DNA of 64,000 bases. It comes from Cyanophora paradoxa CCMP329 (taxonomy: Eukaryota; Plantae; Glaucophyta). Numbering within the stretch: position 1 is the first letter of the stretch; each line of letters opens with the position of its first letter. The position numbers and the translations under genes were made by a program. The notes beneath the pieces were generated by a model that made no database searches, had not been told where the DNA came from, and was given only the letters and a program-made list of their open reading frames with translations. Of the stretch, positions 13,157 to 50,209 are shown in pieces. The stretch lies in assembly GCA_004431415.1 (NCBI GenBank), contig QPMI01000605.1, positions 1-64,000 of the forward strand, read 5' to 3'.

Positions 13157-14009
13157 TCACTCCTGGCCCGCAATGAGGCCGGCGAGGCGGGCCGGCAGGA
13201 CGACGTTGTGCGCACGCATCCTGCTCCGAAATCGCGTAAATTCGAGAGCACTGCAGATCACAAAATTCAGCAGGCGCACTCGTCCGCAATCTCGCGGATC
13301 TCGTCGACGGTCAGCATGAACGCGCCAAACTCGAACGTGCTCACGTCAGTGACCAGGTACGAGACCGGGTGGCTGCCGCCCTGCGTGGCCGTGAACTGCA
13401 GCAGGGTCGCCCGGAAAGGCGTCCCCTCCGCCTGCGACGCAAAACAGTCACGGCGGCAGCGGAGACAGCGCGCACACGAGCACCCGCAACTCGGCGTTGA
13501 GCATGTCCGCCACCTCGCGGCCAGTTTTCGGCGGCTCCATCTGTCGGCCGACAGCAATGATAGCCTCGTCGTCCGGGCTCATGGCCCGCACGGCGAGGTC
13601 GCGGTCATCCCTGAAAGCAATACGCGATTCAGGCAGAGGAAAAATAGAAGTCTAACGCTCAATTGCAAGACGGTACCCGAAGACGTCCTTCGCGGCGATC
13701 TTGTCACCGTGGCCCGACGGCCCCATCAGCACGCCAGAGACGACTGCAAAGAAGGTCCGTCAGGAAAATGAAAACAAAAGGCCTCACGACTCTAGCACAC
13801 CGATCAGCGCCGGGTGCCGTATCTCCTTCGCGCCCGAGTGGAAAGTCTCGCCGGCGCGGAAGCCGTAAGGCACGTTCTCGCAGGTCCTGGCGCGGTGGAA
13901 CCGCGACAGAATGTCGATGGCCCCCTGCACCAAAAACAATACGTCAATTTCGCCCAAAAAATGAAATCTTCAAGCTTCTCACCTGTTCGATATCCGCGCG
14001 ACCGACGCT
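13157..14009 (-). pseudogene. 3' part of a spliced host gene of unknown function, interrupted by the PLV insertion
   Basis: Five short GT-AG introns (13925-13982, 13744-13800, 13611-13676, 13432-13483, 13221-13279) give a continuous frame ...SVGRADIEQ-GAIDILSRF...LIAGQE*. Confidence 0.7.
14004..14009. other. Left target-site duplication GACGCT
   Basis: Identical to 50204-50209 and abuts the first base of the PLV-A TIR. Could be 7 bp (GACGCTG) because the next base is shared with the TIR. Confidence 0.85.
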
Positions 14010-14389
14010 GGTCGGTCTGCAGTCAACCTCACAGTTAAAACCCCGCATTGCATAAATAGACCTCATCGATAATCAAAGCAATTTACGATCGATTCCTTAC
14101 CAATGCCCGATAGGAATCGTAAATTGCTCACTTTTCATCAACCCTCGATCAAAAACCATGACCCCCTACCTATGCCTCTCATATATATCTATCGACTTTA
14201 TTGATAAATCACATTTTCTCTCTTTACCCATGACCCCCTCCCTGTGGTTTTACTGTAAGATTCTATTGTATCTATACAGAAAAAAGGATATACTATATCT
14301 TTTTTTAACGATAGATCTATCTTGGGGATATCGAACAGTATTCGATATTCTAACAGTAGATCCATTGTTGAAAAACAAAGGAATCCTTT
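14010..14389 (+). repeat. PLV-A left terminal inverted repeat (380 bp)
   Basis: GGTCGGTCTGCAGTCAACC...GGAATCCTTT is the reverse complement of 38517-38896. Confidence 0.95.
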
Positions 14390-14434
14390 ATTTCGTAAAA
14401 AATGACAAGAATTTAACAATCAAATACAGTAACG

Positions 14435-15139
14435 ATGGATTGCCCTATTTGCTTTAATAAAATGAAAAGTCATCGTATGACTCAATTAGAATGCGGTCAT
14501 AACTTCTGTAAAAAGTGTTTCGATGATTGGTATAAAGCAAGTGTTAAACAAATCTCTGTTTTTCCAGCGTGTAAAGGAAAACCATTCTGTGAGTCGGATA
14601 ATTTATTTGCACTTAATCTGAGTCTATCTAAAACATGGATAAGTTGCCCAATCTGTAAGCAAGATTACACATATGTGAATTGGGAAGCATCACATGGAAA
14701 TTCTAAAACGCCTAAATTGGAAAAGGTTATATGCAAAATTTGGTTTTCTGTAAATGGATGTTCAAGTGTAGACGCATGCGATCTTATCACAGACTTTAAA
14801 CCACAACTTCTAAATTACATTCCTTTATTAGACCGGAAACCATTAGAACTCGGAGAACAACCGAAATATCCACACACTTTAAGAACGATTAAGTATGTGA
14901 TGGAATGCATTGAAAACAATGAGACCGAATTTCACATGTGTAACTGTATGTGTAGTGATAAGAAATGTGCGAAGGTAAACATTATCTCAGCTAAAACATG
15001 TGATTGTTTAAATCATTCATCTCCAAGTGACTTTGAAAATTGGCTTAAAACATTTGATCCAGAGTCTGATGATTGGTTAGAGAGAATGAAATTTTACAAT
15101 CGTGCAAAATTCCGTATTCTCTCAAAACATGGTATTTAA
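14435..15139 (+). CDS. RING-finger (C3HC4) protein, putative E3 ubiquitin ligase
   Basis: CPIC...LECGHNFCKKC...CPIC pattern; AAAAAATGA motif upstream. Confidence 0.75.
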   Translation: MDCPICFNKMKSHRMTQLECGHNFCKKCFDDWYKASVKQISVFPACKGKPFCESDNLFALNLSLSKTWISCPICKQDYTYVNWEASHGNSKTPKLEKVICKIWFSVNGCSSVDACDLITDFKPQLLNYIPLLDRKPLELGEQPKYPHTLRTIKYVMECIENNETEFHMCNCMCSDKKCAKVNIISAKTCDCLNHSSPSDFENWLKTFDPESDDWLERMKFYNRAKFRILSKHGI

Positions 15140-15195
15140 ATGAAATGTTCAACGGGACAAAAAATGATGTCCCAAAAAAATAACAATTAAAAACA

Positions 15196-15609
15196 ATGGA
15201 TTACTACGGAGTTTACATGTTGGATATTGAAAATCCGGAATTACATAAAGATCTTCTCGAAAACAACGGGGCTGAATGGGATCCGGACACAAAATTATGG
15301 TTTGTCGAAGACGAAAATAACGAACTTTTAAAACAATTCCGTGTAAAACATCCGGGTGAATTCGACCAAGATTACGTTAAACAATTCCCCCGCCAGTATT
15401 TCGTGGCTGATATCAAAGCAAGACTACCGGAGATTGCGGCAAAGCGTATATTTACTCAGTCATCATTACGCAAATATATTAAAAAACAAGGCGCTACATA
15501 CGATCCTCAGTATCGTTTATGGTATGTTACTGATCCTGAAAGTGAGATATGCAAGATCTTTAAGATGTTCACACTCGAACAGGTAGAAGATCTGAGAAGA
15601 CCAAATTAA
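15196..15609 (+). CDS. Protein with two DUF5710-like repeats
   Basis: GAEWDPDTKLWFV and GATYDPQYRLWYV motifs. Confidence 0.65.
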   Translation: MDYYGVYMLDIENPELHKDLLENNGAEWDPDTKLWFVEDENNELLKQFRVKHPGEFDQDYVKQFPRQYFVADIKARLPEIAAKRIFTQSSLRKYIKKQGATYDPQYRLWYVTDPESEICKIFKMFTLEQVEDLRRPN

Positions 15610-15743
15610 ACCGTAATCGTCGTTGGTTCATTACTAATTCTTATCGATTCTCTCTTTTTTATCGCTCGTTTCTTAACAAACTTGCGGAACGCTTTTAGGT
15701 CATCATCTGTTATAATTGCACGGTCTGTGTATACTTTGATGTC
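15606..15743 (-). pseudogene. Captured 3' fragment of a PLV-B-type packaging ATPase
   Basis: Reads DIKVYTDRAIITDDDLKAFRKFVKKRAIKKRESIRISNEPTTITV*, nearly identical to the C-terminus of the ATPase at 48306-49073. Confidence 0.85.
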
Positions 15744-15821
15744 CGTAAAAACTCGGGAGATTGACCTTAATAAAAAATAAAAATGAAAATTTTCACTCCT
15801 TTTTCTAGCGCCGGCCCCAAC

Positions 15822-15956
15822 TTATACTTTATCGTATGTCAGTGTTAATGGGTTATCAATACCCGATACGAACCATAGCTTATGATCAGGATCCCACTTG
15901 GCTCCACCCTTCTTAGCCTTCTCGCGATCCTCGAACGGAATTTTCAAATAAATTTT
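15822..15956 (-). pseudogene. DUF5710-like fragment
   Basis: KIYLKIPFEDREKAKKGGAKWDPDHKLWFVSG; no in-frame start codon. Confidence 0.6.
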
Positions 15957-16149
15957 TTATTTTTGCGCATTAATTCCGAAACAGCCACGGTACTATAGGT
16001 AGATAGAAGCTTATGTTCCGGCTCAGTTACATACCAGCATTTATGCTTCATATCCCATTTAGCCCCAAGGGCTTTAGCTTCATCTTTTTGTTCAAAAGGG
16101 ACCTCAATATAGATTTTCTCCATTTCCTACTATACGAATATATAAAATT

Positions 16150-17516
16150 TTACCTGGTTCGGATCCTAGTACTAGCCCTTATAGCTGGAGCCTTATCATA
16201 GGATGCTACAGCCTCTGCCCCACCGGCTAATTTCTCGGTTCCGGCTACTCTTAGATTCGCTAGCTCCCTTGAAACCCTCTTCGTTCTCTGGACCCTATCC
16301 TCGATCAAGCTGCCTTTTGGCACTGATTCCGCCGGATCTATGCCCTCTCTGTGGATCTGTCTAATTGCTGCGGCCTCCTGCCTCACTGTATCCACTGTAC
16401 TTGCGGAAGGCTCAACGATTGCTTCAACTTCCGATATGATCTGCAGCTCATGAGGCTTGAAGATTCGATTCAAAGGAACACCCTGGGCATCTACGACCTG
16501 GATTCCATTCCCGGCCCTTCCTGCGATCTTGTAGACCTCTCGACTGTATCTCTGAGTGGCCCCCTTGTCAAACTTAGATCTAGGCAGCAAGACTCGAACA
16601 AACAGGCCGGGCTTGAATTTCTCGAATATATCATCAACAATTGCTTTCTTTTTCGATAAAATGAAACTGCGAATGCGAGCCATATCCTCTAACCTAACAT
16701 CTATTGGTCGCATACCTATAGTCCTATTAACACTGGAATTATAATTCAGAACAAAGTCCTCTAGCTTATCCATAAACTTGACTGTGTTGAAAGCGATGCA
16801 GTAGTTATTGATCATCGTTTTGAGGGTCAAATGGAATCGATTCATGATGCCTAAACTCGTGTGATCCCCAGCCTGTTTAAACCTATGCTCGATTCCAAAC
16901 TCCTGGATCACTGCCTGGAACTCTTTCGCTTTAAACTCGGAACCCAAATCAGTCTCTAACACCCTCATTGGAGCGGGAAGCTCACCCAATACCTCTCTAA
17001 ATGCAGTCGCAACACTGACTCCCTCTTTATTCTTTAATTTCTTAGCGTAAGCCCTCCTGCTCGTGATCTCAATAAGAGTGAGTACCGCAATGTACCCCGC
17101 ATTGTACTTTCCGTAAGATAAATAGAATATCAGATCGGCCTGGTAGGTCCAGGGTGGAGCTGTGATTGGAATGAATGTGGACTGCGATGCTGGGGTGGCT
17201 TCTTGTTAATCTGCATAAACTCTTGCTTTTCTGCAACCTCTTTGACCTCGTTATAAGTAACACTCGGATCCTCTTTCTTCAGCTCCTGATAGATCGTATG
17301 GGGATGCTTGTAACCTGTTTTAGGATCGTACATTCGCCTAACTATTTTATTCGAAGCCGGACTCACGGTTTTAAAAGGGACATCCCCTACTACATTTACC
17401 TTTGCTTCTCTTTTACTAATTCTGCCTTCTACTCTCTCTGTATCTGGGATCGGAATGGGGAGCAGGGTCGTTTCGGTCTCATCCCCAGCCCCTCGCCTCA
17501 CTATTTTCGATGCCAT
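16150..17516 (-). CDS. rve (retroviral-type) integrase, one frameshift near 17192
   Basis: WTYQADL, ETDLGSEF, GIMNRFHLTLK, YNSSVNRTIGMRP and FKPGLFVRV motifs. ORFs 17130-17531 and 16150-16989 join if one base is added in a C run. Confidence 0.88.
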
Positions 17517-17534
17517 CCTATAACTATACAAATT

Positions 17535-20500
17535 CTATTTTTTGCTGCTGTTGCATCCTTGATGAGCCAGCTTGCAGTTCGACTTGATGTGAGCCTCCTT
17601 ATTATTAATCCTATCAACCGTAAGCCTGTACCTTAGATCCTTTGCCTGAAGGGAAAGGGGTTCGGTACACAGAGAGCAGATTCGCTTCTGCTCCTTGAGC
17701 TGCTCAATGATCCACTCGGGTGTAATATAATCATCATCATTATAATCCCGACCCGCTTTCTGATCCTGGCACTTGTAAGCCCGAACCTTGGCCTTCAGAT
17801 GCTCGAAGATCTCGGATTTAGCCTCGAACTTGTGGAGCTTTGTGTAAATGAGAATCTCGCTCAAATCTCGGTTGCGAGTCAGAGCAGTCCAGAACCACTC
17901 AGGAGTAACATGGCAGAACGAGGCCTCACAAACGACAATGCCCGAATCGTAGGTGAGTCCTTGAACACTGTGGCATGTTCCAGCATAGGGTAGGTTGAAC
18001 TTTTCCAACAGAGCAGTGGGGAGAGAGAACTGGGTCCCATCAAACACATCCTCCAAAGTGACCTGGTTCCGATTGATATCGACTATGGTATAACTGTAAT
18101 TAGTGAAAGCCGCTACTTTCTCATCTTTTTTACCTCGGGTCACACAGATATATTCACGACAAACGATTTCGATTCCTTTGAAAAAATTGATTCCGTTCAC
18201 AAGGATCCCCTCGGTTTGGGGGTATATACGTTTATGCATGGTTCGGTTGTACAGGTAAGCCATCTCGTTTCTATAGCATACAGCCCTGTAGGAATCAGGA
18301 ATTTCGTTTAGATCAGTTGCAGTTCTGAATCCGTATTTATTTACTATTTCTGTAGGAGCAAGTCCGTTCTCAAAGAGATCGACCTTGATTGTTTTCAGCT
18401 TCTCTCGATCCTCAGGCTTGCGATGCCTCTTGTTGATCATCAGCTGCAGTATGTTGGGGAAGATGCTTGAGATAGCATCGCTGTAATATTGTTTGGGGTC
18501 AGCCACAGCAAGAGCATCTTTTATGGGAGCGTTTTGGTGGGGGTCTCCATTGCAGTAGAATTTCTTATCCGAATACTTGTTTATGAATTTTTTGATCTTT
18601 GCAAGGTCCTTTACTTTATAGGCATAGACCTCATCGAATACTACATGGGAAAAGCCTTTCATAAACTCATTGACCTGTGAAGCCGATAGGGCCTCTTCAC
18701 AGGTTTGCTCATTTAAGACTCGCAGACCCAGAACACTGTACAGGGTGGCCACCCCAATGCGGCTTGCAGCTTCGGGCTTCCCCAATCTGATGCCCATTTC
18801 TTTCAGAGAGCATCGGAACTCGGCCGCTTGTTTGTTGTAGGGGCAAACTATGAGTCCGTTGATGTCATTTTTTAGCAGGTAGACCATCAATCCGGTCGAC
18901 TTTCCGGCTCCTGGAAGCATTCCAAGGGTATTGACGTGATTGAACTCATTGTAAACCTTGGTATAAGCATCCGAATCAAATTCGTTTCGAAGGCAGAAGG
19001 AATTGATATTCGAAAGGGGATCCTCAATTTTAATAGGCTTCGGGAGGGTTCGAATGCGAATGGGGTTCATTGGGGGCTTCTTGTTCGGAATATAGGAGAA
19101 GCGACCAATGTTAGCAAAGGCATTGCGATCGAAGGGCTTTGAGCTATACCTTCCTTTGATATACAGGCAATCAGTGTGGATTCCCACGACCTCGTAACCC
19201 TTGCTTTTGAGTTCCTTGTACTTGTCATACATTTCGCTGCGAACTCGATCGTACATTGCAAACTGGATCGGAAGGAACCCGTTAATGAGATCCTTTTGAG
19301 AATCAGTTATCACATAATAGATGTGGTCATTGAAATCCGAGAGGTTCTTGACCAGAGTATCAGTTTTCGCACCAAAGGTGAATACTTCCACCATTCCGCC
19401 CACCTGCTGGGCATAGGTATCAGCCTCGGACTTTTTGCAGAACAACCTGGTCTTGGATCGCTTGTTGAGTCGCTTTCCTAGCAGACCAATCACTTCAACG
19501 AGAGTAGCCTTTTTCTCACGAGGATTCAGGTCGCTTGACATTATTTTCTGGATCAGCCTTTTTGAGGGGTTGCTTACGAAAAATGATGGGCGGTTGTAGC
19601 CTGTAATTGTCACGAGATCCTTGATGTCCTCCCAGTGACGCTTCAGAGTGTAACCTGTGATCAAGTTCGAGTAGGATGCAGCCCTGTAACGATCGAGCAG
19701 GATCTGAATTCCTGGATCGCAGATGCGGGATTTGTATCCTACTGGCTCATCATCAATATCCTCTTCGTATGTATCCACCCCTTGCATGTAGGTTCCAGTA
19801 TCGAACTGTTGCACAGCAATCACATAGAATGTGTCCTCCTCGATTGGGTGACCATCATAGGGGCGGATGCCATCGAAAATATTGAATACTGGAAGCTTTT
19901 CGATCTTGCTTATAACAGCTGGGTAGCATTTGCACATATCCACTGCAGTGTACTTTGTTCCTGGCTTTGGCTTGATGAAATAGCCATTCAGAGCAGAGCG
20001 ATTGTAATTAACAAGGGCAGTTCGGAATCCCTCCTCGTACTGTGAAATTGTGTCAGTGTTAATCAGGGCTTCCTTGAATTCTTGACGAATAGATTGGACC
20101 TTTTTGTAGTAAGCCTCAGTCTCGAACTCACACTGAACCATGTGATCAGAAACGGAGGGATTAAATACGGAAAAGAATATTCCACTCGCTTTGAATATTA
20201 GGGTTTTAATCTGTCCCCCTTTCATTCCGAGCTTTGGTTCGTATTGTAGGCGATCCAAGAAAGTGAACAGAAGCTCATCCATGGACCCAGTGTAGACGAT
20301 TCGGACTGTAGCTTTCTCCTTATCAGCTTTCAATCCCATGGTCGCAATCTTAAGCAAATCAGCAGGGGTGTGGGCGAACATATCGTACTGCTTGGTCTCA
20401 GTGATCTGGTAGGATGAGTTCAGCGAAGCCTCGGTTGGATTTTCGGTTTCCAGGTCCATTTTCTTGAAATTCTTCTCGAGAGCTTTGATGTTATCGTTGT

Positions 20501-21686
20501 AGCAGTAAACGTGGTTATTGTGTACCATGAAATTCATGCATTGCGGATGCAGATCCTTATTAACGGGCATCTCTCCATGTGGGTATCTGTACTTGAGCTT
20601 GTTATCCTCCGAATAAACACGGAATCCCAGCCTGCAACGATCCGCGAATTTTCGGAGCTGCCTCAGAGTGAGGGACATAGAGGCTCCCTCAGTATATTCC
20701 TTTCCATGGAAAAATCGATACAGACCCTCATAGGTCATCTCAATGTCAGTGTACTTCTTGTACCTCCCCCTTTCATGACAGGCTTTCATGGATCGAGAGT
20801 ACAATGAGATCAGCATATCGTAGACACAGGCATTCGATTTTCCAGAAGCAGGCTTGATGATTAATTCCTCGATCGATTTCGCCTCGGGATTGAGATCGTA
20901 GTTAATGTACTGGCTCACAGCTGCGGTACATCGCATCGATTCTTCGAGTTCTTCATCGAGAAACTCTTCTTGAACGGCTTCCTGGGCTTCCTCTTCCGCT
21001 TGAGCCTCCACCAAAACGATTTCGTGAATTTCCGCAAAATAATCGTACCAATGCTGAATTTCGCTTGCAAGTCGATCAGCCCTAAATACGGTCTCAACTA
21101 CATACAGGAAATCAGCGACCATATAGTGTCTCTGGTTTAGCACAAACCTCGTAACGAAACCATCTTGGGCTATTTGTCGCAGCATCCTTACTGGAATTGT
21201 GATTGAAGCCCTTTTCAGGGGTCGGTACATGCGACCTTCGAAGCGGAGTGGCTGATCCCTTGCACGACCAGTGGGTTCAGCATTAATCTCAGCCCAGAGT
21301 CTGAAAGTGACCCGGACAATAGCATCGTCGGGAAACTGGGCAATCTGCCGGAAAAATTGAGTTAGCTGCCTGTTCTCTCGGGGTCTCGTAGGTTCAGCCT
21401 CAATGGCTCCGATGCGACCGACCTCTCGATCAAATAAAGCCTGGCGAACCCCAAGCAGCGATTGCAGGGTATATCCCCTTGCAGGCCGTTCGATATCGAA
21501 TATTGACTGGATGTTTTTCAAATACAGCTCCAGCATGGTTTCGGGAACCTTGGATGTTCCCGAGAATTTGCGCAATAATGCATCAGCGGTTCTCTTGGTG
21601 AACAGGTTCCGCTGGATACCAAGGTTAATCAATTCAATCGCTTTTGCTTTCAAGCCTTTTCTTCTCTTGTAACTTGCGCGAGGCAT
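17535..21686 (-). CDS. Replicase: divergent family-B DNA polymerase + SF1 helicase + C-terminal HNH-like domain (1383 aa)
   Basis: PolB-like AVDMCKCYP, KKATLVEVIGLLGK and IHTDCLY; helicase GMLPGAGKST, FDEV, GDPHQ, TCHSVQG and WTALTR; C-terminal CSLC...TVDRINNKEAH..SNC..AHQGCN. Confidence 0.85.
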   Translation of the reverse strand: MPRASYKRRKGLKAKAIELINLGIQRNLFTKRTADALLRKFSGTSKVPETMLELYLKNIQSIFDIERPARGYTLQSLLGVRQALFDREVGRIGAIEAEPTRPRENRQLTQFFRQIAQFPDDAIVRVTFRLWAEINAEPTGRARDQPLRFEGRMYRPLKRASITIPVRMLRQIAQDGFVTRFVLNQRHYMVADFLYVVETVFRADRLASEIQHWYDYFAEIHEIVLVEAQAEEEAQEAVQEEFLDEELEESMRCTAAVSQYINYDLNPEAKSIEELIIKPASGKSNACVYDMLISLYSRSMKACHERGRYKKYTDIEMTYEGLYRFFHGKEYTEGASMSLTLRQLRKFADRCRLGFRVYSEDNKLKYRYPHGEMPVNKDLHPQCMNFMVHNNHVYCYNDNIKALEKNFKKMDLETENPTEASLNSSYQITETKQYDMFAHTPADLLKIATMGLKADKEKATVRIVYTGSMDELLFTFLDRLQYEPKLGMKGGQIKTLIFKASGIFFSVFNPSVSDHMVQCEFETEAYYKKVQSIRQEFKEALINTDTISQYEEGFRTALVNYNRSALNGYFIKPKPGTKYTAVDMCKCYPAVISKIEKLPVFNIFDGIRPYDGHPIEEDTFYVIAVQQFDTGTYMQGVDTYEEDIDDEPVGYKSRICDPGIQILLDRYRAASYSNLITGYTLKRHWEDIKDLVTITGYNRPSFFVSNPSKRLIQKIMSSDLNPREKKATLVEVIGLLGKRLNKRSKTRLFCKKSEADTYAQQVGGMVEVFTFGAKTDTLVKNLSDFNDHIYYVITDSQKDLINGFLPIQFAMYDRVRSEMYDKYKELKSKGYEVVGIHTDCLYIKGRYSSKPFDRNAFANIGRFSYIPNKKPPMNPIRIRTLPKPIKIEDPLSNINSFCLRNEFDSDAYTKVYNEFNHVNTLGMLPGAGKSTGLMVYLLKNDINGLIVCPYNKQAAEFRCSLKEMGIRLGKPEAASRIGVATLYSVLGLRVLNEQTCEEALSASQVNEFMKGFSHVVFDEVYAYKVKDLAKIKKFINKYSDKKFYCNGDPHQNAPIKDALAVADPKQYYSDAISSIFPNILQLMINKRHRKPEDREKLKTIKVDLFENGLAPTEIVNKYGFRTATDLNEIPDSYRAVCYRNEMAYLYNRTMHKRIYPQTEGILVNGINFFKGIEIVCREYICVTRGKKDEKVAAFTNYSYTIVDINRNQVTLEDVFDGTQFSLPTALLEKFNLPYAGTCHSVQGLTYDSGIVVCEASFCHVTPEWFWTALTRNRDLSEILIYTKLHKFEAKSEIFEHLKAKVRAYKCQDQKAGRDYNDDDYITPEWIIEQLKEQKRICSLCTEPLSLQAKDLRYRLTVDRINNKEAHIKSNCKLAHQGCNSSKK

Positions 21687-21868
21687 TGTTTACTTTAAGC
21701 CAAGAAAATAAATTCCGCAAGAAGAAGAAAAACTCTTTTTTCTCTAAGTTATATAAGTGGATTTTCCTTAAGTCATTTTTTGTTGACCACAGCGATAAAA
21801 TCATTTTTTCTTTTTCGATAGAAAAGCATGCATAAAAATAATATATACAGAGCTGCAAACCTCAGCAT

Positions 21869-22261
21869 TCATTGTGTCTCCTTGTTATACTTGCGGGGTC
21901 TACCGGGTTTAGGGGGATTTTGGGATGTCTCTGCCTTTTGTTCCTCAGCAATAGCAGCGAGTTTTTCGGCGTATTTCCTATGATAGTATGCAAGCGATGA
22001 TGCCTTCTTCTTTTCTCTGAACTCGGCATCATTCTGGTATTTCTCCTGTTTTTTATAGCATTGCCTTTCGAGGCATTGCTCCTTTGTTTTCTCATACCTA
22101 GCCTTGCGGACTGCCAGCTGTTTGGCTCGGAATTCGGGATCACTGTGATACCTTTCCCTGTACTTTTCGTTTCTCGCTTTTTTCTGCTCTGGGGACAGTT
22201 TGTATGGAGTTCTCTTTTTAGGCACTTCTGCGATTGCAGGGGTAGTTTCGATATCTGCCAT
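21869..22261 (-). CDS. Basic coiled-coil protein with AT-hook-like motif
   Basis: K/R-rich repeats (YHSDPEFR, YQNDAEFR) and a C-terminal PGRPRKY. Confidence 0.6.
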   Translation of the reverse strand: MADIETTPAIAEVPKKRTPYKLSPEQKKARNEKYRERYHSDPEFRAKQLAVRKARYEKTKEQCLERQCYKKQEKYQNDAEFREKKKASSLAYYHRKYAEKLAAIAEEQKAETSQNPPKPGRPRKYNKETQ

Positions 22262-22345
22262 CTTCCTATTAATAGCCAAGAAAAGTTTTTTCTCTAATTA
22301 AATTAGGGGGTTATCCTTAAATCATTTTTTGTGATGCATCGAGAT

Positions 22346-22633: not shown

Positions 22634-22811
22634 TTGGGTCTGCTGGCATTGACTCTACAGAAATCGTAGACCTCCTTCTCTCTCTTGCTTCTGAAGCATT
22701 ATCCTCTGTATCTGACATCTCAAACTCTATTGTTGTGTCACAGCATCCACTGTGGCAATTGCTCACCACATGCAGACTGAACATCTCGAAGAACTTTCGT
22801 ATTATGTCCAT
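22539..22811 (-). CDS. Hypothetical protein
   Basis: ORF filling the gap in a co-directional gene block; no motif recognised. Confidence 0.3.
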   Translation of the reverse strand: MDIIRKFFEMFSLHVVSNCHSGCCDTTIEFEMSDTEDNASEARERRRSTISVESMPADPNEYFYEQQDYPRRSSLPAENIFSANINGGHN

Positions 22812-22833
22812 ATCTCTAATAAAACAGAGATAA

Positions 22834-23568: not shown

Positions 23569-23596
23569 TGTATCTTTATTAGAATGAGAGATAATT

Positions 23597-40230: not shown

Positions 40231-43200
40231 TACTGGGCTGAACAGTTACACCTACAATGTGACAAGAAACAGTTTCGAGAAATGTGAGCGATAGCATTGT
40301 TCTCCCGATCGACAGTAGCTTCTTCGAAATCCATAATATCAAAGCACCTTCTGCATCGCCCCAATTGCTTCCCATACTGCTTTTTGAACCAGTCCCAATC
40401 AACATACTCTGCCAAGGAGAACTCCCGATTGGCTTGTTTGTCCTGGGATTTGTAGGAATCGATTTTCTGAGCTTGATCCTCCTTCGTTTTCACCATTGTA
40501 GCCGCCTCGGATTTATCAACGAAAATCACGGTATCCGAGAGATTTTGGGTTCGAGTTGCTGCAACATAGAACCACTCAGCAGTAACATATGGGGACCCAG
40601 TCTCGTGAATTACAACACGAGAATCCCTGATTGTGTCACCCTGAATGATGTGACAGGTGAAAGCATGGGTCAATGCGAAATACTTGATATCTTCGCTTTT
40701 TAGAGTATGCACTTCACCCGAATCAATGTCTTTGAGAGTGAGAATTTCCTTGGCTTTGTATTCGACCACTTCGTAAACAAAGCCCCGCTGAATGATGCCC
40801 TCACTTGTTGTCATTCGCACCTTTGCAATCAGCTCAACACCTGTCTTATATACAGGATCCTCTCCATGAATCATTTTATGCATTTTGTTGTTCACCTCTG
40901 CACACTTGCGGTTTGAATTGCATATTGAGATATCACCCTTCTCCAATGTATCAACTACTTTCAAGCCCAATCGTCTGGCAGCAATAGAAACTGGTAGTTC
41001 AGTCCTGAATAAGTCCTCCCATAACTGGTCGAATTTCTTCTGATCTGCAGCCAGTTTATGACGCTTTCCAACCTGCAGGTAAACCTCGTTCTTGAAAAGT
41101 CTATCGAAGATCTTGTTGTAGTAATCTCGTTGATTGACTGTTATGAATTGGATGGGTGGGTTCTGGTAGGGGTCGCCTGTTGCGATGTAGAGTTTGTCTG
41201 GGAACTGCACAGTCATCACATCGCACAGAGATTCCAATTCCCTAATCTCAAACTGGTAGATCTCATCAATAACAAAGCAATCGTACTTAGATAATTCCGA
41301 AACCTTCTTCCCAACATTTCCCTTCATTCTCTCATCATCAACATTCAAATTCAAGGCTCGATAAATAGTCATCACCTCAGGAGCATCCTGCCCCACTCTG
41401 CTTTTAGTTCCATTCGCAAATCCTTGCATCTCTTATTAGTAGGCGCAACGAACAAGCATTTCTTACCATACTTCTTGGCCATTGCCTTTGCCAAAGTAGT
41501 CTTACCAGTTCCCGGTTTCACTCCTTTAATCAGCACATTACCTTGCCCATCCAAAGCATTTACGATTGCTGGGAGGTCATACTCATCCTGGAACTTGTGA
41601 ACCTTGTGAACAATCTTTTCAACATTGATGAAAGGTTTGGAACGAGTTTTGAGTCGATCAAATGTGATCATGTGGCTCTTTGGTTTTTTGGAAGTCCTCT
41701 TACTGTGGGTTATCGAGTTCATGTTTGCTGGCTTCACATCAAACTTTCCAGTGTTCTCGAATAGGTTTCGGTCAAACTGCTCGAATGGATATGGTCTATC
41801 GATTGTCAGCTCATCGGTCTTGATTGCAAGGACTCCCACTCCCTCAGAGAGCAATTTCTTGCATAGGCGATACATGATGCCTCGCATGGTGGAGTAAATC
41901 ACGCACTGTATTGGCAGGAAACCATCAATGAAAGCCCGTTCTTGTTCTTCCTGGTTCACATACCAAATCATGGGCGATTTAATGTCCTTCTCATTCTTAA
42001 CTGATGTGTGTGTTGGCTTCTCTTGATCGAAACTTATAAACTTCAGGGTCCCTCCATTCTCTTCAATGAAATTCAGAGCATCATTTTTATTGAAAAAGGT
42101 GTAGGTGGTTGCTTTTCGCTGGGACTTCTTACCAAATAGACCAATGTGATGGTTGGCAATGTCTTTCTTCTCCTTGGTCGAAAGCTGACTTGCATACAAC
42201 TGCTTGAAAGCCTGCAAGGTGACATTCTCGGCAATCCGATAAGGTCTTAGAACTGCCTCAATGCTGATGTCATCCTTAATATCCTCGTAAAACTCTTTCA
42301 AAACCTCACCATACATCAGGTTATACTTTGAATCGACGAGAATCCTCTTGTATTGATTCAAGGTATTCGCCTCACCATAATTTCTGAATGCTTTGAAGTG
42401 TTTGGCTTTCACTTTCACGGAATAGAACGAATTGTCTTCGATGTCCGAGCTGCAAGACACTTTGACTTTTTCGAATCTATCAAATGAACTGAAAACTGGA
42501 AACACCTTAAGCACTTTCGAAACGATGTGTGTGTATGCTTTGGAAATGTCGAGCTTGTGAGTATCAATGGATCCATAGGCAATGTTCTCTACTATTGTTC
42601 GGACCTCAGAGGCAGATCCAAAGAACCCAGTCAATGCACTCTGTTGCCCTTTAGTAAATGCTGCATATGTTTCTGGATTATATTTGCTTTTGTAGGGTTT
42701 GTTGATAAGCGCCCTATACATCATCTGACTCATCTCATCAAACAACTTGCGATGGGCATCATCTGCAAGGTTCACATCAATATTTTCCATATCCACCATG
42801 TTGCCTGGTGGAAGGATAATTACATCTTTATCCTCTATTGTGTAGTGAATGTATGTTATTGTTCCCTCATCAGTAATGGAAGTGTGAACCTCGTGATTAG
42901 CCTTTCGGAAGCTTCCCAACAACTCAAGTAACGGCTTGTTGTATGTGATCTTAATTTTTCGGAATTGCTATCTTTCTCTCTGGCAATGATCTTGATGATA
43001 TCCTCCTCGCTGTAAGCAAAGAAGCTGTTATCGTTGAACTGTGTTTTGATCTTGTATTTCATGGCTGCTGAACCCATACTCTTCTTGGTTTCACGGGCGC
43101 CAGTTCCATTGAAAGAACGAACCAGTTTACTGAGATCCTTATTTAATACATAAACGTGGTCGTTTGCAATCTGCACGTAAACACTTGCGGGAACTAAGTG

Positions 43201-44412
43201 AGAGTTGGTTCGATTCGGTTTGAAGGAAAGAGTATGAATAACCTTGTCATCCTTTCCAATTGCAATGAACCTGATGCGCCACTTTTTCAAGAAAGGAAGA
43301 AGCTCATCAAAACTCACTCCCCAATCAGAATCAGGCTTAGGTTCATATCCCTTGATCTGAGCAAAGAGCCAGTCTTTTGAGTAGTTGACCTTCTTATACT
43401 TCTTGATGCTATGGGCATACTCAAATCCTTTGCATAGGACCTGGTGTAATGCTTCAATTAAACAATCTTTGATGGTAAGTGAATCATCGGGACATATTTG
43501 GTCCATCACACACTTAGCCTGACCATTGAGGGTGTATTTTACGAAACGAGATACGATTTTTGGAGCCTGCCCATCTCGCAGAACTCGTTCATTCAAAGGG
43601 TATACTGTTTTGTTATCGCTGACAATAATCTCCTCGATTGTCATCACCTCTGGATACTTGATGTCTGATCCATTGGGCGCATCATTCGTGAAAACCTTAA
43701 CGAATTGATAGTCTCGATTGCGAGGGTTGCTTTGCCCAATAGAAATCAGGAAGGAACCAATCTCGTTCAGAGTCCACAATGCAAGGAAGTTATTAAAGTC
43801 CTCTTGCACCTGTTCAAGCAATCTCACCAGCACTTGCTTGGGGCAGGAAAGCATCAATGCGCGTTTTCCGGATTTTTGTGTTTCAATGTAAGGTGTGTCT
43901 TCGTGGATAACAACATCGTAGTTGTTTGGGAGGTTATTGAAGTCTTCAGGAATTCGGTAAAACCTCACACGAAGCGAGACTGTATCACCATCCTGGGCCT
44001 CAATATCCCTTATGATTCTCCTTACCAGCGCTTTGAACTGCTTACTTTGCTGCTTTTCCACATTCTTCTGGGAACGAGCGGAACGTTTAGCCTTCTTATT
44101 CTGCTTGCGATCAAAGCGCTTCCGCTTCTTTGCTTCGGCTGCTTTCTTGTTCTGCTTCTCAACATTCTTAGCGGCTCTCTCAGCCCTCTTCTCCTTCTTC
44201 TCTTGCTTGCGATACAAACGAGGCTCTACGATACCTCTCAGTGTATCTCTGATATCAATCAACTTTGGAATTCTAATTGCTTTGAAAGTAAATTCTCTCA
44301 AGAAATAGATATCCTGCTCTCGGGTCAATTTGTCTTCTACTTTTGCTTGCATGTAGTAACCAAGAATCTCATCCTGCAAATTCTTCGAAATCCGATTACT
44401 TGGTCGAGGCAT
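40230..44412 (-). CDS. Replicase: divergent PolB + SF1 helicase + HNH-like fusion (three ORFs; frameshifts near 42955 and 41392)
   Basis: LDISKAY, KDIANHHIGLFGK and IKTDEL; GVKPGTGKTT, IDEIY, GDPYQ, TCHIIQG and YVAATR; CRRC...TVDRENN..AH..RNC. Collinear with 17535-21686. Confidence 0.83.
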
Positions 44413-44653
44413 TTCTTTGTTCACTCTATTAATATATACCTACAAAAGTTTTCTTTAAATACTTTTATACTCGCGTCAATTTTTACCGGCAAAACCGAAA
44501 GTCTTCGACAAAATAAATTTAGTCGAGGGCATTTATAAAAATAACAAAGGGTTGGCTCGATGATCGAACTCTAAAAATAACAGAATGATTTTATTTGTGG
44601 TTCCAGCGCGGTTCCCACGGGTTTCTCAGAGCAGATCGCGCTGAGAAAAACGA

Positions 44654-44911
44654 TTAACAGACATATTTCGATTTGCGACCACGGTTAGAATAGGGGACAC
44701 CATAGAGATACTTCACAAAGCAGACTGCATTGGAAGCATAGAGACGCTGGGAACTCTCAACGATTCTCATGGCTCTGTAACACTCATCAGTATGGTATAA
44801 ATCACGCATTTGCTTTGCGAATTTCGCATTATACTTTTTTAAATATTCCTGACCTTTTTCAGTTTTGCGATAACGATAAGTAGCACGCTTCTGAGCCTCA
44901 CTGATTGGCAT
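44654..44911 (-). CDS. Small basic hypothetical protein
   Basis: MPISEAQKRATYRYRKTEKG; AAAAATTGA upstream; positional analogue of PLV-A 21869-22261. Confidence 0.55.
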   Translation of the reverse strand: MPISEAQKRATYRYRKTEKGQEYLKKYNAKFAKQMRDLYHTDECYRAMRIVESSQRLYASNAVCFVKYLYGVPYSNRGRKSKYVC

Positions 44912-45260
44912 TTTGTCCTTTTCTACTCTCTTAATATATGTTAAGAAATCTTTAAGTAGTTTTTCTGTCTGTATATATCGATTAAACTCCTGTCAATTTT
45001 TGGTCCCGATTGCAGAGCATCCAATTCTGAAAGAAGATGCTGGAAAAATGATAAAGCCACCGATACCCAGAAGGTTCACTTGTCGGCTGCAAGTTTCTAC
45101 CACTGAACCCGATAGAACAGGTGATTAAAGTGATTTACCTATGGATATTTCACTTCGCTCTACAACGCCTCCATAAAAATGAAGAAGTTTTGAGCCTACG
45201 GATAGGATTGGTTACGTAGCGCTAACAATATTCAAGATTTTTTAAATTCGGAAATGATCC

Positions 45261-46010
45261 TTAACGGCGATAACCGGGTCTAATACCAAGCTTGGCAAAC
45301 CCTGAGACCATTGGGGCAGCATTTGGAATCGAGTTGACTGGATCAGCCTGCGAAGTGGCAACCCGAAGGATCGATTTATTCAGGACCGGCAAATCCGTTT
45401 TGTTGGAGTCTTGATACTCAATGGTCTTCGCAATCAATTCAGTTGGTGAATCTTTTACGGCTTGCACAGGTTCAGGGATGACTTCATGGGTTACCTCTGG
45501 TTTCTTCTCCACCTTCTCCTTTGTGATTGGCTGTTCCTTGATCTTGTTTTCGTTTTTGGTCTCTGCTGCAATGCCATCAACAAGACTCTTAGCATACTGG
45601 TATGTCACAGATTTCAGTCCACCAGTGGTTGATCGAATAAAGTAGCGGTTGCGATGGTCTTTCTCGGAATAGGTTGAGTAGAGTCGCTCACCACCATCAA
45701 GCAGTTTCAGCAGTGTCGATGATGAGGCAACCTTGTCCTTCGTGGATGATTTGAACTGCCCTTTCTTGATTCCTCGTTTGGCTCCAGGCATGCGGTTCAG
45801 TGGGACTTGGTCAACCAGGGCATTATCATCATTTGAGTTTGAAGTAAGCGCGATTGTGTGAGCATTCATGGTTTGGTGAACATTTTTATCGAGATCACCA
45901 GTTCCATATGCAGCGGTTCCTTTTGATTTCTTAAACTGTTTCCGTTCTGGTTCTGCTTGCTCAACTGGTTTGGCTAAGAAATTCTTTGGCTGGGTCTTTC
46001 GAGTTGCCAT
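45261..46010 (-). CDS. Hypothetical basic protein (possible core protein)
   Basis: 249-aa K-rich ORF downstream of the penton. Confidence 0.6.
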   Translation of the reverse strand: MATRKTQPKNFLAKPVEQAEPERKQFKKSKGTAAYGTGDLDKNVHQTMNAHTIALTSNSNDDNALVDQVPLNRMPGAKRGIKKGQFKSSTKDKVASSSTLLKLLDGGERLYSTYSEKDHRNRYFIRSTTGGLKSVTYQYAKSLVDGIAAETKNENKIKEQPITKEKVEKKPEVTHEVIPEPVQAVKDSPTELIAKTIEYQDSNKTDLPVLNKSILRVATSQADPVNSIPNAAPMVSGFAKLGIRPGYRR

Positions 46011-46046
46011 TTGTAATATCGAGACAAATTTATTCTACAGTATTTC

Positions 46047-46946
46047 CTATGACCGTGAGAACGGCAAGTAGAGTCCCTCCAACTCTTTAATGACATTCTT
46101 CAATGCTTTCTTGGTCAGATCTTTATCATCTTCCGTAATGAGTTCGAGAGTCATCGACCAGTCAGTGGTAATATCCGTTTCAGCACCATTCCAGTATGTG
46201 AGACGAACTTTTAGCGTTTCCACTTCCACTAAACCATTTTGCTCATGCAGGATCATGGAATTATTCGATGAATCGTATTTTAGCAGACTGCCTACCGTTT
46301 GGTCAATCTCGATTTTTGCAAGGGCTTTATCATCGCTGGTGTTCTTGCTTACATAGTTGCCTTTGAGTGGGTCAACATGAAGAAGGATGTAAGAATTGAA
46401 CAGAAGATCAAGCGGTATAACACTGTCAATGTAGTAATTATAAGTATAAGCTCCAACTGTTACAGGTGAATCGAGCAGGGCAGAAGCGTATCCATTTTCA
46501 GAACTGTCAGGTCTGCGATCTGGGAAACCAAGGAAGTTCGCTAAGATCCGACTTCCAAAGGTGAGGGTAAATGTTGCATCGCACATGAACCGTAGAAACA
46601 TGGTAACAGGATCATATGTAACGTAGAAATGGCGAGTATATGTAGTTCCCGCTGCTCCGTACACTTGTGAAGCTAGTTTGGCATTTAGAAGATTCACCAA
46701 ACTATCCGAAGTATATGTCCCTTTCGAAATAGTGTTACTCTTGGTCTTAATTACATCCCCAGCATCATAGGTTCCTGTAATCAAACTTCCATTCTCGCTA
46801 AGATTGTAAATGTTATTGAACATCTCAAAGTTAGTCACTCTGCAGGCTCTCACATTTTGGATTGCATGGGGAATTTTGTAAGTAAAGTTCGTTGGGGTTC
46901 CATCATCTCGGTCCCTGGAATCAATATTGAGATAGTAACGCGTCAT
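46047..46946 (-). CDS. Minor capsid protein (penton)
   Basis: YLNIDSRDR...IQNVRACRV...FNNIYN and LKVRLTYWNG...DWSMTLEL. Confidence 0.82.
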   Translation of the reverse strand: MTRYYLNIDSRDRDDGTPTNFTYKIPHAIQNVRACRVTNFEMFNNIYNLSENGSLITGTYDAGDVIKTKSNTISKGTYTSDSLVNLLNAKLASQVYGAAGTTYTRHFYVTYDPVTMFLRFMCDATFTLTFGSRILANFLGFPDRRPDSSENGYASALLDSPVTVGAYTYNYYIDSVIPLDLLFNSYILLHVDPLKGNYVSKNTSDDKALAKIEIDQTVGSLLKYDSSNNSMILHEQNGLVEVETLKVRLTYWNGAETDITTDWSMTLELITEDDKDLTKKALKNVIKELEGLYLPFSRS

Positions 46947-46998
46947 TCTGTTTAATAAAGCATTTTAAAAATTTCTTTTGGTATTTTAAACATAAGAG

Positions 46999-48225
46999 AT
47001 GGCACTCACTGGAACTACCCTGAAGGAACTCCTCGTAACTCCCGGTTCCGATCAAATTTATCTTTCCCCTGGTCTCCAAATCGGAACCAACCCCAAATAC
47101 AAACCATTCCTCGAGCAAGTTCGTCCCCGAGGCAACACTTTTGGCTTCAAGAATACCGCTTACTTCGATCTTCCTCGCAAACAACTCCTTGCTGGTGTTT
47201 CGCTCTATTTCAAGATTGCCACTGGTGGTGGTGTAGCCTGCACCCTCCCCAATGGTGGTTCTTCCTATATTAATGAGGTCCGCTTTGTTCATGGTGGTTT
47301 CAAGTATATCATCCCTGGTGACTGGATAACTGTTAACGCTCTGATTGATAATGATCATGCTACCATGAGCAGCATGTATGCTTCTCTTGGTTACTTCAAA
47401 GAACTTGATCGTGAAAGCACAGATGAGGCTATGGAATACATTGTGAAAATTCCCGCTGCTTTCTGGGATGATGCTTACTTCCCACTATGCACACTGGCGG
47501 ATATGCCAACAATCGAGGTTGATTTCCGTGATGCTGGGATAGTCAAAGTTCCTGCTGGTGGATCTGTTACATTTGCGGATTGCTCCCTGATCTGTCAATT
47601 TGTAAACATCGCTTCGGCTGAGGCTGAGACACTTTTGAAAATGGCAAATGAACAAGGTGGCATTCGCATTCCGATCACAGAGGTCATCCACAAGAAGACA
47701 CGAGCGCTCAAAACCGCTGATGCTGGTGAATCGGTTGAGGTGACACTCGCTAATGTTTCTGGTCTGGTTCATTCGATTCTCATGACAGTTCGAGAGGTGA
47801 ACAAACTTAACACCTACACTCACTCTGATTTCTGTGGTCATGTTTCGGATGTTAAGATCGATCAGTTCCAGATCTTCCACAACAATCGCTCCCTGGATAT
47901 CTCCAACAAACCCATTTCTGGTTTCCTCTCGGCTATCAATCACATTCCTTCTCATTACAAGGGTGTTACTGTTGGCAATACTACTTATGGATTCGAGAAT
48001 GGAAATATTTACGGAATCGTTCTTTCCAAATCTGGAAAAGATTCGCTTCGGAACAGTGTTATGGGTTACCAGGATTTCTTCAACAGCAGTTCCAGTTACA
48101 TGGATCTCACTGTTTCGGGATGCACTGATGCTGCTCCTGTTCAGGTTGATATCTATGCCCTACGACACAATGTTATGGTCCTCAATGGCTACAACATCTC
48201 TACCCTGAAAGTCTCGAACTTCTAA
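46999..48225 (+). CDS. Major capsid protein (double jelly-roll)
   Basis: AYFDLPR, YIIPGDW, KIPAAFW..AYFPLCTL, VSGLVHSIL and GYQDF..SSSSY; homologous by eye to the PLV-A capsid gene. Confidence 0.8.
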   Translation: MALTGTTLKELLVTPGSDQIYLSPGLQIGTNPKYKPFLEQVRPRGNTFGFKNTAYFDLPRKQLLAGVSLYFKIATGGGVACTLPNGGSSYINEVRFVHGGFKYIIPGDWITVNALIDNDHATMSSMYASLGYFKELDRESTDEAMEYIVKIPAAFWDDAYFPLCTLADMPTIEVDFRDAGIVKVPAGGSVTFADCSLICQFVNIASAEAETLLKMANEQGGIRIPITEVIHKKTRALKTADAGESVEVTLANVSGLVHSILMTVREVNKLNTYTHSDFCGHVSDVKIDQFQIFHNNRSLDISNKPISGFLSAINHIPSHYKGVTVGNTTYGFENGNIYGIVLSKSGKDSLRNSVMGYQDFFNSSSSYMDLTVSGCTDAAPVQVDIYALRHNVMVLNGYNISTLKVSNF

Positions 48226-48305
48226 AGTTCTTTTTCTTTCGTTATAGTAGAAAGCTCAAAATTAGTAGGTAAGGGGTTTATTTTGTTTTTTATCTTATTA
48301 CTGTA

Positions 48306-49073
48306 ATGGATAACACAGGAATGGATATTGATTTGAATGACATCCCAGAGTTTGAGCCTGCAAGAACAGTTAAATTAAGCACGCGTTTTTTATTATGTGG
48401 ACGCAGCAATTCTGGTAAGACAACTTACTGCAAATATCTACTTTATGAACTGAGGGATAAGATCGATCAGATTGTAGTCTTTAGTTCTACTGCGTTTACT
48501 GGTCAATTCAGAGATATAACGCATCCTGATAATATCTATGAGGAATGGGACGATAATGTAGTAGTGAAACTCATTAGCATGCAAAAGAAACGAATTGAGA
48601 ATAATGAGAAGCGTAATAATTTGGTTATAATCTTAGACGATATGATCGGTTCTTCTTTGGATATGCATAATTCGGCTGTGTTATCTAAATTGATCACTAC
48701 AGCCCGTCATTATTCGATTACAGTAATTATTAATACTCAACGTTTATGCTCAATTTCTACTACGATTCGTCGAAATGTTGAGTTCGTAGTATTTTTCAAT
48801 ATTCTCGGGAATGAGAAGGAGTTTAACTGCGCTTATGATGAGTATAATGGGGGTCTTGATAAAAAGACCTACAAGGAATTGCATAGACTGTGGGGTTATA
48901 ACTACCAAACAGTCATAACTGGATTGCAAGGGTATGATATAAAAGTATACACAGACCGGGCAATATTAACAGATGATGATATGAAGGGCTTTAAGAAGTT
49001 TGTTAAGAGACGAGCGATAAAAAAGAGAGAATCAATAAGAATTAGTAATGAACCTACGACGATTACGGTTTAA
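48306..49073 (+). CDS. A32-like DNA packaging ATPase
   Basis: GRSNSGKT, VIILDD and ARHYSITVIINTQ motifs. Confidence 0.92.
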   Translation: MDNTGMDIDLNDIPEFEPARTVKLSTRFLLCGRSNSGKTTYCKYLLYELRDKIDQIVVFSSTAFTGQFRDITHPDNIYEEWDDNVVVKLISMQKKRIENNEKRNNLVIILDDMIGSSLDMHNSAVLSKLITTARHYSITVIINTQRLCSISTTIRRNVEFVVFFNILGNEKEFNCAYDEYNGGLDKKTYKELHRLWGYNYQTVITGLQGYDIKVYTDRAILTDDDMKGFKKFVKRRAIKKRESIRISNEPTTITV

Positions 49074-49302
49074 TTTGGTCTTCTCAGATCTTCTACCTGT
49101 TCGAGTGTTACGTAATCTTCTGCTCTTTTCTTAATTGCTTTTGTGGCTCTCCCACTCAATTGTGTGATGTTTACATTACTGATATGCTGTGTTATCTCGT
49201 TTCCTATTATCTTACGACGATCGATTGGTGATAAATCGGGATCGTTAAATAGGTCTCACTTTGATGTGATAAATTCATGGGACAGGATTGTATGCGTCAT
49301 GG

Positions 49303-49707
49303 TCACAGGTTGTGGGTTTGTTTTTTGTGACTCGTCATTTTTTTGCCCGATGCGGCAAATTGCTTTAAAAAGAATTGCTGACGCTTTCGCTGCTGCTCAA
49401 ACGGAGTATTTCGAATGCATTCTTTTGGAACTTCGTGACATCCTTCCCATTTAATGGTCTCATTCTTTGATAGAATAAATACGATTTGGAAAGGATCATA
49501 ATTATCATCAATTAACACAGAAGAAAAGTAACCCGGTGAATCCTCCTTTTTAACGGATTTCATACAGTTTTCCAAAGCGTTTATGGTCATATTGAAATCA
49601 TTCCAATGAAACCAATATTTTTTTATCACCTCTTTCAATTCATTCGCTGTTTTCACTTGATTAAAAAGAGCGGTTGCGGTATCACGGGAAATAGTAATGA
49701 AACTCAT
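49303..49707 (-). CDS. Hypothetical protein; followed by a disrupted frame ending ...TLEQVEDLRRPN* at 49070
   Basis: 134-aa ORF with AAAAAATGA upstream (49741-49749). Confidence 0.45.
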   Translation of the reverse strand: MSFITISRDTATALFNQVKTANELKEVIKKYWFHWNDFNMTINALENCMKSVKKEDSPGYFSSVLIDDNYDPFQIVFILSKNETIKWEGCHEVPKECIRNTPFEQQRKRQQFFLKQFAASGKKMTSHKKQTHNL

Positions 49708-49934
49708 GTTTATAATGTAAATATCTTTATTTTTATAACGTCATTTTTTGCATGAATAGAAGCGGAGTAATGGCGGATTATTTTTATTTTCAGACTGAGA
49801 ATGGTTTAGATTTTATCGATTGAAGGATATCGGGAATCTCGTCGATTGAATACTGAGATTACTGAGTTTCTCGATTGGATTACTGAGAATCATACGGATA
49901 TTGTGAAAAGCAGTGAAATATATTGGGGTAATTT

Positions 49935-50203
49935 TTGGGTGTAATGCATATAACTTCGATTGATTAGATTTTAGATATAACTTCGATTAAATAAGATTTA
50001 AGATATAACTTCGATTAATTAATTTAAGATATAACTTCGATTAATAAGATTTAAGATATAACTTCGATTAAATAAAATAGATTGTGACTGAGGCTTACTG
50101 AGATTTACTGAGATTGGGGATTGGGTTACTGGGAATCATGCGGATATTGCTTGAAGGGGCAAATTATATTGGGGTAATTTTTGGGTGTAATGCTCACAGC
50201 TCA
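49935..50203 (-). repeat. PLV-B right TIR (269 bp)
   Basis: Reverse complement of 38903-39171, ending ...TGCTCACAGCTCA. Confidence 0.95.
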
Positions 50204-50209
50204 GACGCT
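50204..50209. other. Right target-site duplication GACGCT
   Basis: Identical to 14004-14009. Confidence 0.85.

Follow-up and report, generated by a model that had tools for sequence, protein, structure and literature searches.

How did two different viral genomes come to lie end to end in one host exon, sharing a single target-site duplication? The question is raised by contig QPMI01000605.1 of Cyanophora paradoxa CCMP329 (assembly GCA_004431415.1), of which positions 1 to 64,000 of the forward strand, referred to here as the window, were analysed. Two Polinton-like viruses (PLVs), designated PLV-A and PLV-B, abut between two copies of GACGCT. The virus families are already known; no report of an end-to-end pair under one duplication was found, and the order of events is undecided between two leading routes, a joining of the free genomes before a single integration and a joining of B to an A already in place.

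Layout of the pair and its target duplication

The elements, their terminal inverted repeats (TIRs) and the interrupted exon are placed as follows.

14004..14009, + strand: left target-site duplication GACGCT (sequence and junction contig)
14010..38896, strand not assigned: PLV-A (TIRs, GC content and sequence)
14010..14389, + strand: left TIR of A, 380 nt, starting with a GGTC direct repeat (repeat search)
38517..38896, - strand: right TIR of A (repeat search)
38897..38898, + strand: GA of ambiguous source, either the end of A running on, a B end left untrimmed, or letters 1-2 of the duplication (read contigs)
38899..38902, + strand: GAGC, B-family terminal sequence, lost from the right end of B (read contigs)
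38899..50203, strand not assigned: PLV-B (TIRs, read contigs and GC content)
38903..39171, + strand: left TIR of B, the 269-nt part that is paired on the right, holding a 27-bp tandem repeat (repeat search)
49935..50203, - strand: right TIR of B, terminating in CA and lacking the last 4 nt of the family terminus (sequence and read contigs)
50204..50209, + strand: right target-site duplication GACGCT (sequence)
13983..14009, - strand: 3' part of the host exon, including the left target copy (splice and reading-frame analysis)
50210..50308, - strand: 5' part of the host exon (splice and reading-frame analysis)

PLV-A measures 24,887 bp and PLV-B, counted from its true left end at 38899, 11,305 bp; the matched-TIR span of B is 38903-50203. 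Both TIR pairs are 100% identical, and the TIRs of A and B are unrelated to each other (best blastn E 1.8). The guanine-plus-cytosine (GC) content of A and B is 40.8% and 40.3%, respectively, against 60% and 56% in the flanks. A sequence-only reading of this DNA had given the order GACGCT, A, GAGAGC (38897-38902), B, GACGCT, with a duplication around the pair and none around either virus. On re-analysis its coordinates were exact, and no 5-6-bp duplication was found around A or B singly.

When one copy of GACGCT is retained, the flanks form an open 126-nt exon, bounded by AG and GT, that runs from 50308 to 13983 on the minus strand and is in frame with the next exon. Since single-copy flanks give this open exon, and two random host 6-mers would match by chance with a probability of only 5.7e-4, the GACGCT repeat is a real target duplication. 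An extra C/G pair lengthens the B TIR to 270 nt, which makes a 5-bp duplication, ACGCT, equally possible; the predicted empty site is identical under the two readings.

Several small repeats lie near these ends. At 14000-14016, the GACCGAC preceding the junction and the GTCGGTC just within A are reverse complements, by chance or through target preference, and GACCGA, resembling the host target at the left junction of A, also occurs at 38893-38898. The 27-bp tandem repeat of the B TIR occupies 39031-39158, and an 89-bp, 82% copy of the start of that TIR lies at 49859-49947, just internal to the right TIR.

The inner joint in sequencing reads

At least half of the words of 34500-44400 were present in 14 of the 24 listed sequencing runs, and the contigs of four runs were compared; no RNA run containing the locus is among the 24. 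The flank contigs are identical in the four runs, which are thus separate libraries, probably of one lineage, and one of them may be the source of the window. Short-read contigs of this kind show presence, not absence.

The A-B junction is carried by a 60-letter contig (38867-38926) that has no differences from the window in any of the four runs. Extending 30 letters to either side of the A end, it misses a 31-letter bridging rule by one; its depth is 80.7, 63.5, 24.4 and 86.7, or 0.6-1.3 times that of the unique region of B. A false join of two haplotypes carrying different viruses, the objection that the sequence-only reading had itself raised, is refuted by this contig.

Other copies of the two families define the joint. 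B-family ends elsewhere reach 38897 (four of four runs), 38899 (two of four) or 38900 (one of four) and then pass into GC-rich DNA that is not A; the deep B-end contigs begin at 38899 or 38900. GAGC at 38899-38902 is therefore the B-family terminus and the true spacer is at most 2 nt, GA. As other B ends carry GAGC, B is complete at its inner end and lacks 4 nt at its outer one. Neither end of A is truncated, since other ends of its type finish at 38896 or 38897. In all four runs, GA at 38897-38898 also occurs in three variants of the A-type end, which show 2-3 differences over about 40 letters. This GA may prolong the A end, be left from a B end that was not trimmed, be a 2-nt overlap between the two, or open the duplication as its first two letters, so that the joint holds at most 2 nt of host DNA, four of its six letters being viral and GA ambiguous. 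The letters first read as a spacer were exact, and what had been missed is that four of them belong to B. Both termini open with short direct repeats (GGTC twice in A; GAGC-T-GAGC in B), which are typical of protein-primed origins with a slide-back step.

These observations bear on a composite transposon, in which A and B would have been adjacent at an earlier site, with GAGAGC an old target duplication, and would have moved as a unit. The spacer, as first read, has the required 6 bp. However, four of its letters belong to the terminus of the B family and all six recur at one other B end, so GAGAGC was rejected as an old duplication and the composite route is largely refuted; the near single-copy A-B junction also speaks against it, and we consider it barely credible.

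Outer junctions, empty site and copy number

The junction of A with the host on the left is clear in three of the four runs and in the fourth (X1) is merged with another end. On the right, a host contig continues for 46 non-B letters beyond 50204 in all four runs, and these 46 letters place its start at 13958, which is the start of the A-left junction contig. The contig passing 50204 is therefore probably the empty site, as judged in the four runs by length and start, its letters not being displayed. The raw depth of the host right flank is 1.5-2.6 times that of single-copy DNA and two contigs carry the left flank, as would be seen if one copy is filled and another empty. C. paradoxa has been reported as more likely haploid (PMC6704402), in which case the empty site would represent a duplicate of the locus and not an allele.

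The junction of B with the host on the right was not found in the contigs of the four runs, among the matches listed, and is taken from the window. A B-end contig (38899-38941) is unbroken in two runs (X4 and X6) and the host contig crosses 50204 unbroken in all four; hence the junction is not in these contigs. Assembly-graph cleaning plausibly drops a short link beside a 12-24-fold deeper repeat. Alternatively, the window could be wrong here, with dropped letters or a false join, and the single duplication would then be partly an assembly product. The missing read support is compatible with such an error, as are 1-nt indels by which the window departs from each of the four runs, both in B and in host DNA (50799). 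However, an error would hardly be expected to yield a 6-bp repeat by which an open, spliced exon is restored, and the flank depth and two left-flank contigs are those of one filled and one empty copy. An error of this sort is improbable.

By depth, exact A-type ends number roughly 3-4 and B-type ends roughly 12-24, the depth of the B-end contig being a mean that does not give the number of ends starting at 38899. Compared with the commonest read contig over 39142-43751, this copy of B has 33 differing bases among 4612 and two indels, yet its TIRs are identical; about 6-12 close copies are indicated by depth. The A-B junction itself is close to single-copy, and the same junction was not recovered at several sites. 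No A-A or B-B joint is among the contig ends listed in the four runs, which is weak evidence given that contigs show presence only. Other A-type and B-type ends adjoin non-partner DNA, where most B flanks are undisplayed and joints with other subfamilies could be hidden. The 36-kb A+B unit is therefore probably a one-off and not a travelling pair. An obligate A-B partnership is rejected, and the partnership proposed in the sequence-only reading is not supported.

A repair event could also have placed B beside A. If A had inserted alone, a break at its right end might have been repaired off another copy of A that already abutted B, so that B was copied in and the end rejoined at microhomology. 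This would account for the canonical duplication of A and for the short B end, and some 3-4 exact A-type ends do exist. With an A-B junction that is nearly single-copy no donor is visible, and the donor junction would still need an origin; we judge this route very unlikely.

Outside the four runs, the A and B TIR patterns and the B integrase had no match in the viral contig collection, and the B TIR pattern had none in metagenomes. Three metagenome matches to the A TIR pattern were 19-20-nt chance matches. Exact protein look-up matched none of 10 window proteins.

Integrases and earlier recombination between the two lineages

Which enzyme could have acted, and whether A and B had met before, was considered from three features.

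16150..17534, - strand: rve integrase of A, with a frame break near 17190 (PF00665, E 2.1e-10)
39172..40230, - strand: rve integrase of B, an open frame with three acidic catalytic positions, the third Asp (match to a foamy-virus integrase, E 3.7e-5)
15571..15743, strand not assigned: 173-bp segment of A that contains the 3' end of an ATPase gene of B type and is 90% identical to 48936-49108 in B (alignment)

The A integrase retains D24 and D86 and has Asn at the third catalytic position (16842-16840). That position is Glu in 13 of 13 homologs, none of them from this host, and Asp in B; a solved lentiviral integrase aligns its own Glu there. The frame break near 17190 may be an assembly indel, because the two breaks in the polymerase-helicase gene of B (near 41390 and 42954) are absent from read contigs. 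From its residues, the integrase of A nevertheless looks impaired, and A may have needed another integrase, unless the Asn change postdates insertion. PLVs without an integrase have been proposed to need that of another element (PMC4642659).

A and B share 22-29% identity in integrase, replication protein, capsid and ATPase. Against this background, A carries the 3'-terminal ~45 codons of a B-type ATPase gene (15571-15743, matching 48936-49108) head-on with its DUF5710 gene, and the same convergent junction is present in B. A virus of B type likely supplied, from its right end, the leftmost genes of A; with this tail at the left end of A, the two lineages have recombined before.

Order of events

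The mavirus-type rve integrase makes a 5-6-bp duplication, so a precise duplication of this length at the locus means one concerted integrase cut, as for mavirus (10.1101/068312). The reacting ends would then have been the left end of A with the right end of B, if the pair was already joined, or the two ends of A, if A came first.

We tentatively prefer the first, that A and B were end-joined as free linear genomes and integrated once by one end of each, and place it a little short of an even chance. Both genomes would have been free in one nucleus and their inner ends ligated without loss, perhaps via a shared GA overhang. A retroviral-type integrase would have cut the target with a 6-nt stagger and used the left end of A and the right end of B, joining B at CA, 4 nt inside its usual terminus. 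The acting enzyme could be that of A, which looks impaired, that of B, or another.

In a single-event co-integrate, both elements should be enclosed by a single target duplication within a continuous exon, and this is the arrangement found, the right junction being read in the window. The inner joint is viral on both sides, which supports co-integration. No second insertion within 2 nt of the A end is needed on this route. The complete identity of both TIR pairs fits one recent episode, and the B-type ATPase tail in A, a trace of an earlier meeting of the families, also counts in favour. The outer end of B stops at CA, the usual cut site of retroviral integrases.

Other observations weigh against co-integration. 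Host end-joining can link linear genomes of the protein-primed kind, as in adenovirus, where the concatemer junctions have large heterogeneous deletions (PMC7552057); unlike these, the A-B joint lost nothing, and both inner ends resemble those of ordinary integrated copies. The target duplication also starts with GA. It is B that has the abnormal end, though the B integrase is intact and that of A is altered, the reverse of what hitch-hiking on the enzyme of B would predict. The CA clue is weak, since CA is not the terminus of ordinary A and B ends. As the TIRs are unrelated, co-integration would call for an integrase that tolerates a foreign end. Finally, this is a single case, with the B-right junction seen in the window alone.

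The other leading route is sequential: A integrated normally, and B was later joined at the right junction of A, by end-joining capture or by aberrant integrase insertion. We hold this possible, at clearly less than an even chance. B would have inserted 2 nt from the A end, GA would be a 2-bp duplication and the right end of B would have been trimmed by 4 nt; the sequence can indeed be read as A, GA, B, GA, CGCT. The ends of A and the 6-bp duplication are then fully canonical, and only the outer end of B is abnormal, with a 1-nt overlap (G). Such 1-nt overlaps are produced by end-joining. Duplications of endogenous virophages can be as short as 1 bp (PMC8547959), and nested or tandem viral elements are common in Halocafeteria, where the nested ones comprise 5 PLVs and 9 virophages (10.64898/2026.07.28.741278). 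If a fresh junction broke and captured a co-present genome, the near-end hit, the 2-bp duplication and the short B end would all be accounted for. However, an ordinary later insertion leaves a 5-6-bp duplication around the later element, and B is bracketed by the 2-bp GA only. The sequential route also demands a hit within 2 nt of the A end plus a second anomaly, and GA is equally explained by viral terminal sequence on either side. None of the three other visible B-end flanks is, by eye, a TIR, so that B shows no preference for A ends there, though most B-end flanks are undisplayed.

Co-integration, by comparison, requires one oddity, the short end of B, together with tolerance of a foreign end. 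Ligation followed by one insertion, as proposed in the sequence-only reading, thus stands as the best single reading, while GA and the 4-nt-short B end also fit a later joining. The standing given to the two leading routes reflects judgement and was not computed. Under either, the genomes of A and B met in one nucleus.

The linearisation of PLVs, their entry into chromosomes and the exchange of gene modules have been inferred almost wholly from finished insertions. This locus, one well-supported case at a single site, preserves the inner joint of two viral ends and so gives a base-level view of the termini; its ends also form a concrete substrate pair for asking how strictly a Polinton-type integrase reads them. 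If co-integration is true, a viral integrase accepted the end of another virus. If such pairs recur, they would provide a route to the hybrid genomes seen in the PLV group, and catalogues built on a TIR pair plus a duplication would miscount them as two elements without duplications. A wider proposal, which we regard as rather unlikely, is that co-nuclear PLV genomes are ligated and integrated by one end each, an integrase-disabled A riding the enzyme of another, and that such heterodimers recur in PLV-rich genomes, are missed by TIR-pair finders and yield hybrids such as A.

Gene content of PLV-A and PLV-B

The remaining genes of A are listed first, followed by those of B.

14435..15609, + strand: RING-finger gene and DUF5710 gene (Pfam)
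17535..21686, - strand: 1383-aa replication protein with polymerase-like motifs, a superfamily 1 helicase and a C-terminal HNH-like stretch (Pfam and motifs)
23597..24391, - strand: A32-type packaging ATPase (PF04665, E 5.9e-14)
25451..26818, - strand: predicted double-jelly-roll major capsid protein (structure model and homology)
26872..27882, - strand: probable minor capsid protein (from its position and a weak similarity to that of B)
28968..30384, - strand: patatin-like phospholipase, in two frames (Pfam)
31054..37771, + strand: fibre-like genes, namely PTR-PTR-H-lectin, two C1q proteins and two related open reading frames (ORFs) (Pfam)
38096..38494, + strand: S-adenosylmethionine (AdoMet) decarboxylase (PF02675, E 5e-11)
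40230..44412, - strand: polymerase-helicase gene in three frames, with the two breaks given above (homology to A)
46047..46946, - strand: probable minor capsid protein (likeness to that of A)
46999..48225, + strand: major capsid protein (homology to the A capsid, E 1.5e-15)
48306..49073, + strand: A32-type packaging ATPase (PF04665, E 3e-14)

In the structure model, of predicted local distance difference test (pLDDT) score 68.7, the capsid protein of A folds as a double jelly roll and matches iridovirus and PBCV-1 capsids (E 3e-17). The single-sequence model of the B capsid reached a pLDDT of 29.6, and its double jelly roll is assigned via homology to A; one database search gave 6 distant matches and another gave none. 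The probable minor capsid ORFs, next to the capsid genes, are alike at E 1.5e-5 and have no Pfam match. The replication protein of A has no Pfam polymerase match; three polymerase-like motifs were located, which we take to be of family-B type.

Large cargo in A (28968-38494) is absent from B: the patatin phospholipase, the PTR/H-lectin and two C1q fibre-like genes and AdoMet decarboxylase. No fibre gene was recognisable in B. A zinc-finger endonuclease-like gene (PF14311) lies between the ATPase and capsid genes of A at 24448-25377, and a short remnant related to it (PF14311) lies near the right end at 37794-38066.

The interrupted host gene and its surroundings

None of three pieces of the host exons that were scanned had a Pfam match. 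A decayed Pif1-type helicase (10209-11902, weak Pfam matches) faces the interrupted short-intron gene (13300-50330), and the two together may be a Helitron-like element present in about 2 copies. Arrays of 1.2-1.6-kb units made of diverged 148-bp subrepeats lie on both sides (4100-10150 and 52000-64000).

Comparison with known systems

Judged by their genes, A and B are PLVs of an already catalogued kind. Both have the features by which PLVs are defined (PMC4642659): a double-jelly-roll capsid, by model in A and by homology in B, an A32-type ATPase (PF04665) and TIRs. As expected for PLVs, no maturation protease family was detected among 30 ORFs scanned against Pfam, within the sensitivity of Pfam. 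A and B share the rve integrase of canonical Maverick/Polinton elements and lack their cysteine protease, and are not classed as canonical Polintons. Canonical Polinton termini are 5'-AG...CT-3', whereas A has GG...CC and B starts with GAGC.

In C. paradoxa, 366 capsid genes in two groups (272 and 94) are recorded (PMC10120064, PMC12220804), and both capsid types are listed as endogenous viral capsids (PMC10120064 Table S2). The B capsid is, by eye, ~96% identical to gene_49165 (PMC10120064); that of A is 58% identical to gene_47449 (= P0001) and by eye closer to gene_64235. Glaucophyte PLVs share the rve integrase, AdoMet decarboxylase, lipase, absence of a protease and PTR-PTR-H-lectin fibre (PMC10120064, PMC12220804), and the fibre architecture of A is mentioned for this species (PMC12220804). 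At 11.3 kb, B is smaller than the 14-40 kb quoted for PLVs, and the available parts of these sources describe no end-to-end pair or shared duplication among the endogenous PLVs of C. paradoxa (PMC10120064, PMC12220804). The sequence GACGCT has one entry in PMC12220804 Table S4, where it belongs to another organism. A search that left most subscription literature outside found no account of two different PLVs side by side within a shared duplication.

Mavirus and the endogenous mavirus-like elements (EMALEs) of Cafeteria also have an rve integrase, TIRs, 5-6-bp consensus-free duplications and recombinant genomes (EMALE02); they differ in having virophage capsids with a protease and a duplication for each element, with no tandem case in the parts available (10.1101/068312; PMC8547959). 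Hybrid viruses are described for Cafeteria (PMC8547959) and for cryptophyte and chrysophyte sets (PMC12220804). The virophages and PLVs of Halocafeteria seosinensis likewise include adjoining or nested different elements and exchange genes, but these are described as nested or tandem insertions, and the part of that source available does not mention two unrelated genomes abutting within one duplication (10.64898/2026.07.28.741278). Adenovirus concatemers share host end-joining of linear viral genomes, whereas their joints are between genomes of the same virus, have large deletions and involve no integrase insertion via the outer ends of two species (PMC7552057).

Two further systems are close in mechanism. 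Retroviral junctions with two long terminal repeats (2-LTR junctions) are made by host end-joining of linear viral genomes and are again same-virus joints. In composite transposons, the outer ends of two copies of one element mobilise the intervening DNA and leave one duplication; the A-B pair differs from these in that its ends are unrelated and nothing lies in between.

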